In this document: piece after piece, positions 25,862 through 26,187 of the stretch
Position numbering within the stretch: the first letter of the stretch is position 1
Layout of the letters: each line of letters begins with the position of its first letter
From: Mustelus asterias
Lineage: Eukaryota
NCBI RefSeq assembly: GCF_964213995.1
Contig: NW_027590255.1
Span: forward strand, 496,001-560,000
Reading direction: 5' to 3'
Length of the DNA: 64,000 bases
Made by a program: the position numbers and the translations under genes
The notes under the pieces: generated by a model
Databases searched by the model: none
What the model was told of the DNA's origin: nothing
The model's input: only the letters and a program-made list of their open reading frames with translations

Positions 25862-26187
25862 TTTTTTTGTACTTTTCCAATTCAATCAAATTCAATTCAG
25901 AGTCTCAACAAGTTGAGACATTTCCGATCCAGGCTGACAAGACAGGGCAAGCGACCAAATTACCCTGTCCTGGGCCCGATCTACATGAGCCAAGCTGAAT
26001 GGAGTTGGGGGAGGTTCCTCCTCCAAGGCTTGAGCTCATTTGCATCTTAGCCAAAAGGCCGAGATGCCGCTTTTAAAAATTGCTTCATATGAAACATATG
26101 AAGCTTCAATGTAACCTAATGACCTCAACCAAGTGCAGCATCCAATCCATACTACACTTGATCTTCGCCAAAAGGCCGAGAAGCGAT
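25862..26187 (-). mobile_element. U2 snRNA-headed, poly(A)-tailed short element (candidate SINE), copy 1
   Basis: 26149-26187 matches U2 nt 1-39 with one mismatch; a second U2 nt 7-27 at 26044-26064; body shared with 45614-45942; A-tail. Confidence 0.8.

Follow-up and report, generated by a model that had tools for sequence, protein, structure and literature searches.

A U2 snRNA-headed, non-coding retroposon family in Mustelus asterias, likely copied by a Keno-like LINE

Introduction

In a 64,000-nt stretch of the Mustelus asterias genome (contig NW_027590255.1, positions 496,001 to 560,000), referred to here as the window, two copies of a sequence of about 330 nt open like U2 snRNA, which raises the question of what kind of element they represent and how it is transcribed and copied. 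As a rule, a SINE brings along a Pol III promoter of its own. A class of snRNA-headed SINEs without a Pol III promoter, SINEU, is described by Kojima (2015, PMC4494074); the available part of that paper leaves their mode of transcription open and places them in no genome outside crocodilians. Our literature search, beyond which most subscription papers lay, returned no U2-headed SINE in sharks and SINEU in crocodilians only, and PMC5499810 makes no mention of SINEU or snRNA. Here, we describe a non-coding retroposon of at least 4,500 copies, assembled mostly from U2 pieces, and argue with reasonable confidence that a Keno-like LINE probably copies it and that, once inserted into U2 genes, it is probably transcribed from their promoters.

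Results

Two copies of a U2-headed element lie in the window

As the first-pass annotation of this DNA had it, the window holds two colinear copies; their identity is 90% over 329 columns (blastn). Their contexts, taken at first to be unrelated, are so in that the flanks of copies 1 and 2 do not resemble each other; copy 2, however, sits in a duplicated segment whose flanks are common to seven loci. Neither copy has a target site duplication (TSD). A head of U2 nt 1-39 had been ascribed to both and is indeed found in copy 1 (97% to the genome's U2 gene), whereas copy 2 retains nt 6-39 only (45619-45652), its first 5 nt not being U2. The second U2 stem-loop I proposed for the body is present in each, U2 nt 4-27 matching 26067-26044 in copy 1 and 45731-45754 in copy 2. 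The features are as follows.

25862..26187, minus strand: copy 1, U2-headed retroposon, full length from U2 +1, without TSD (sequence comparison)
26149..26187, minus strand: U2 nt 1-39 head of copy 1, 97% to the Mustelus asterias U2 gene
26112..26141, minus strand: antisense arm that in the predicted fold is joined to head nt 11-39 by G-U-rich pairing, in place of U2 stem-loop I
26075..26120, minus strand: probable U4 nt 30-73-derived segment of copy 1 (shuffle test not significant for this copy, 196/1000)
26104-26082, minus strand: GCTTCATATG hairpin inside the probable U4-derived segment
26042..26067, minus strand: inner U2 stem-loop I (match to U2 nt 4-27 at 26067-26044), likely an older monomer's head
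25985..26039, minus strand: long hairpin with hypervariable loop (fold, copy alignment)
25926..25981, minus strand: long hairpin that joins an arm to the strand derived from U2 stem-loop IIa; two of its pairs differ in a compensatory way from subfamily to subfamily
25872..25945, minus strand: diverged U2 nt 40-~110 (direct, 4/1000 shuffles; via the sister family, 0/1000 in both steps)
25919-25902, minus strand: stem IIb-derived hairpin within the diverged U2 nt 40-~110 part
25862..25877, minus strand: 3' end motif and A-tail of copy 1, the last A being the A of the H2A start codon
25401..25861, minus strand: promoterless, frameshifted histone H2A copy adjoining the copy 1 tail
45619..45942, plus strand: copy 2, from U2 nt 6, without TSD, in the segment duplicated at seven loci

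The H2A copy begins exactly at the ATG behind the SINE tail and carries a 1-nt frameshift near 25611; an intact H2A paralogue lies at 53182-53574. Elsewhere, the window contains a histone gene cluster with six 3' stem-loops as well as tRNA genes or pseudogenes (18868-22002, 21396-25445, 39224-39295, 52063-53641) and satellite arrays of 38-40-nt and 20-nt units (27830-30400, 32150-32920, 59745-60700, 38107-39000), and parts of 26429-35500 recur inverted at 57295-63960.

The element forms a dispersed family of thousands of copies

Searching the 3.68-Gb genome with a 30-mer of the element's 3' end gave 4,531 exact matches (control 0), and a head-plus-arm junction pattern gave 1,739; both counts are lower bounds on copy number. 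Dispersed copies carry A-tails and TSDs, in agreement with the initial proposal of a dispersed snRNA-headed retroposon family. Specifically, a TSD of at least 9 nt (9-22 nt) flanks 18 of the 23 best-scoring dispersed loci, compared to 60 of 798 mismatched flank pairs. For an unselected sample, we took 98 of the first 100 pattern matches on C1. Measured against one young copy, their median identity is 93.9%, and 78 of them start within U2 nt 1-20, 24 at nt 1-2; TSDs were called at 42 of the 98, a count made without a control and including some calls far from the element's end that are probably due to chance. Segmental duplication, under which the two window copies would merely share flanks, was rejected as the whole explanation and holds only for the seven loci of copy 2.

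The element thus combines a length below 500 bp, an A-tail and a dispersed, multicopy distribution with TSDs, and its head is U2-derived. A classical Pol III SINE was rejected, the head not being of the tRNA, 5S or 7SL type and a T5 run being present internally. In an Rfam search over the copy, U2 alone scores below E 0.1, and no known RNA family or ribozyme was found in the body.

Rare copies sit behind U2 upstream DNA

The layout predicted by the first-pass annotation, in which U2 upstream DNA is followed by head, body, tail and U2 from nt 39 onward, exists in the genome. In L114 (C21), 258 of 263 upstream nucleotides are identical to an intact U2 gene of the array, followed by head, body, tail and U2 39-185. 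Likewise, an internally deleted copy that ends a U2 array (L097, C24) shares 148 of 150 upstream nucleotides. Such arrangements are rare, the two patterns joining U2 upstream sequence to the element having 2 and 6 exact matches genome-wide, against thousands of copies. Moreover, the promoter-linked copies are not pristine: the copy at L097:2551 is the internally deleted one, and L114 has stem-breaking changes. U2 and U4 genes align loosely with one another over a PSE-like stretch near -60, which may serve as a promoter element.

Array DNA is also found away from the arrays, inside the TSDs of dispersed copies, where it amounts to 7 nt (L104), 36 nt (L107) or whole spacers (L100). Further, the U2-linked copies are spread over several subfamilies, which suggests repeated homing.

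A Keno-like LINE resides at the same U2 site

Two U2 array regions harbour a resident LINE.

C24:44.81-44.94 Mb (L091): 8,035-bp tandem unit with an intact U2 gene and a Keno-like LINE, amplified at least 15-fold
C21:28.05-28.08 Mb (L113-L116): 448-bp unit that carries a second type of U2 gene, with distinct upstream DNA, and that the LINE has invaded heavily

The U2 genes of C21 are about 89% identical to the C24 type and score 170-175 bits. The LINE encodes a CCHC ORF1 and an ORF2 comprising an AP endonuclease (Exo_endo_phos), a reverse transcriptase of L1-like type and a zf-RVT domain; in the 8,035-bp unit, ORF2 is interrupted by a short repeat. In both arrays, the LINE's A-tail joins U2 at nt 39, and full-length copies begin with a U2 1-33/35 head of their own and a predicted fold-back arm. 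According to the available text of PMC4640811, this position is the insertion site of Keno and Utopia alike, but Utopia uses a restriction-like endonuclease. Because its endonuclease is of the AP type, the resident LINE is Keno-like; it encodes AP endonuclease and reverse transcriptase and is inserted before U2 nt 39. Utopia was rejected as its identity and was not seen in the U2 array stretches examined. The LINE is loosely specific: 22 of 95 matches to its 3' UTR fall in the two U2 array regions, and U2 follows none of 30 sampled dispersed LINE ends.

Several observations connect this LINE to the SINE. The exact LINE junction at U2 nt 39 is found in six SINE copies (control 0), with variants in two more (L108, L178), and one such insertion has U2 nt 39-55 as its TSD. 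Of the Keno/Utopia link drawn initially, the Keno side therefore stands through this shared junction, while the Utopia side does not, given the AP endonuclease. Twelve of 30 dispersed LINE ends have a SINE no more than 1.5 kb away, compared to 0 of 29 sister-family and 0 of 7 U4 control loci; the twelve represent at most 11 independent sites, since L197 and L198 share flanks. At L184, L185, L197, L204 and L206, SINE and LINE occupy a common nick site, and L203 is a SINE-LINE fusion inside one TSD. Based on junctions and nick sites, a Tx1-type LINE is thus the probable partner. Conversely, after merging of five overlapping loci, a Keno 3' end is found near only 3 of 87 SINE sites and U2 follows at 1 of 87; consequently, much of the copying may be the work of other L1/Tx1 families. 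Nor do SINE and LINE have a 3' tail in common beyond a short AAAGTA-T-A motif.

In a competing account, the retroposon is the same, but most of its RNA would come from read-through that starts at unrelated promoters in the flanks, general L1/Tx1 families would do the copying, and the copies in U2 arrays would be by-products. More than 99% of copies do lie outside U2 genes, and multiple copies occupy 23 of the 87 SINE sites, in many cases around a single repeated TSD, so that read-through sources would be plentiful; flanking promoters are also what the accessible portion of Kojima (2015, PMC4494074) proposes for crocodilian SINEU. We consider this account unlikely, since element starts cluster at U2 +1 to +20, the shared upstream sequence on dispersed copies is U2-array DNA (in cases met rather than in a systematic screen), and nick-sharing with the Keno-like LINE is strong.

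The body contains U2-derived sequence and probably a U4 piece

Apart from the second stem-loop I, the first-pass annotation regarded the body as non-U2, a description that does not survive comparison with a sister family. This family of about 230 nt (1,408 candidates) consists of U2 1-34, a short arm and diverged U2 ~40-160 (L120:1021-1165; L211-L240), some copies bearing U1- or U4-like additions. Aligned directly, the element meets U2 starting at nt 40-44, a match equalled by 4, 21 and 8 of 1000 shuffles in three copies, whereas the alignments of the sister family to U2 and of the element to the sister family both beat all 1000 shuffles. By this route of sequence comparison, diverged U2 nt 40-~110 makes up the body's 3' third. 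As this part aligns to U2, the last hairpin listed earlier corresponds to U2 stem IIb with changed pairs.

A further segment probably derives from U4 nt 30-73. The match is equalled by 6, 36 and 196 of 1000 shuffles in three copies (196 in copy 1) and is thus supported in two of the three only; via the U1-headed relative L224, both steps exceed all 1000 shuffles. The history likely began with an older U2-derived monomer in front of which a second head module was added, the simplest origin of the inner stem-loop being the old head of the monomer that gained the new one. The antisense arm was also considered as a simple inverted duplication of U2 and rejected, its match to reversed U2 not being significant (257/1000 shuffles) and its pairing running through G-U. 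Matches to the 3' end near the C21 array proved to be GATTG microsatellite rather than homology.

These findings bear on the origin suggested initially, namely a non-autonomous, internally deleted Keno or Utopia with a U2 leader. Full-length Keno-like copies do share the target and likewise start with U2 1-33/35 and a fold-back arm. The body, in contrast, has no significant match to the Keno 5' and 3' UTRs (323/500 and 45/500 shuffles score as well), and its 3' third matches U2 from nt 40 on; a Utopia parent additionally conflicts with the AP endonuclease of the U2-resident LINE, going by the available description of Utopia (PMC4640811). This origin is therefore very improbable and already largely refuted. 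A pile of independent template-switch chimeras of U2 and other RNAs without a source gene, to which head junctions that differ between subfamilies and additional 5' U2 or U1 fragments in some copies (L145, L216, L224) could point, is hardly credible, since one multi-part layout is common to 69 near-full-length copies, subfamilies are nested with nearest-neighbour identity up to 98.8%, no LTR or other long element ends in the SINE body among the 98 sampled copies, and subfamily-diagnostic changes in the head are linked to those in the body. The common layout and the nesting of subfamilies instead mark a family that stems from source genes rather than a set of independent retrocopies.

Predicted masking of the U2 parts by antisense arms

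The fold of copy 1 has a z-score of -7.4, with 0 of 100 shuffles as good. In the predicted structure, head nt 11-39, which we take to include the branch-point pairing sequence, pairs with the arm just downstream, and the remnant of stem-loop IIa is paired with another arm. The head-arm helix comprises 20 pairs, with 98.4% of cells paired in 70 copies; this long hairpin between head and body is missing from the hairpins listed by the first-pass annotation. Three of those four are family-wide, whereas GGAGGAACCTCC lies in the hypervariable loop and is not conserved across the family.

The covariation check suggested at the outset gives a divided answer. Among the 70 copies, cells with two-sided changes number 32, compared to 10.5 in shuffles (0/500), but pairs that change on both sides (3/80) are not above chance, being matched by 129 of 500 shuffles. 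Changes common to at least five copies keep 19 of 19 pairs and rare changes 35 of 105, a test that is partly circular because the helices were chosen from the same sequences; in the unpruned structure, shared changes keep 32 of 41 (9 broken) and rare ones 49 of 151 (102 broken). In the predicted fold, the antisense arms would mask the U2 head, and may do so in vivo.

A few copies show runs of A-to-G changes, accounting for 28 of 42 changes in L157. The dense cases are L157:1414-1743 and L086:947-1287, and L204:1599-1935 groups with both in the tree. Such runs would be expected if ADAR-edited double-stranded RNA had been retroposed.

Discussion

The element constitutes a genuine SINEU-type family, distinguished by its target, likely promoter capture and predicted fold-back design. 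As far as the accessible description of SINEU-1, -2 and -3 extends (Kojima 2015, PMC4494074), the likeness covers a length below 500 bp, a U2-derived head, an A-tail, internal oligo-T and thousands of copies, as well as repeated 5' addition of snRNA pieces and tandem insertion around one TSD. Partners are related too, Tx1-Mar of SINEU belonging to the Keno-related Tx1 group and the Mustelus partner being Keno-like. In contrast, SINEU targets Mariner-N4, whereas the Mustelus element targets the U2 gene at the Keno site; the transcription of SINEU is left open in that text, whereas promoter-linked copies are present here; and masking arms and a U4 piece are not among the features it gives for SINEU. 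The hosts differ as well, the one crocodilian and the other, whose genome contains HE1-like repeats, a shark. It is by description, not by sequence, that the two are set apart. With Keno, the element has the 3' junction at U2 nt 39 in common (available parts of PMC4494074 and PMC4640811), but it is non-coding, with a body that is not of Keno origin. Truncated U2 retropseudogenes and snRNA-L1 chimeras, as covered in the portion of PMC4494074 at hand, likewise show a U2 5' piece, TSDs and template switching (compare L203); they are one-off products, whereas the Mustelus copies keep to a fixed layout and form one family divided into subfamilies.

We propose the following cycle. A copy would insert at U2 nt 38/39, where its own U2 1-39 head would merge with that of the gene, placing the element at +1 of a U2 promoter. 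RNA polymerase II would then make an RNA that starts like U2, and the antisense arms would close over the head and over what is left of stem-loop IIa. With its U2 parts covered, this RNA would not act as U2. Starting at the A-tract, LINE proteins would reverse-transcribe it, in most cases at random A-rich sites; rare insertion back into U2 would renew the source genes.

A stronger version, which we offer tentatively and rate somewhat below an even chance, sees in the element a homing SINE: promoterless, almost wholly made of spliceosomal RNA, renewing its sources at Keno's U2 site, with arms shaped by selection to conceal stem-loop IIa and the head that pairs with the branch point, so that the RNA would escape splicing or not poison it. 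Keno may employ the same fold-back trick. If true, this would explain how elements of the SINEU type come to be transcribed, and the class would have arisen a second time. The family would also extend SINEU beyond crocodilians and offer a natural case of U2 sequence silenced by built-in antisense arms. Since candidate source loci, a partner LINE and retroposed array flanks occur in one genome, the question of transcription is directly testable.

At L061, L127, L157, L171 and L192, newer insertions lie within the U2 head of an older copy near nt 28-31, and dispersed heads may thus act as decoy targets.
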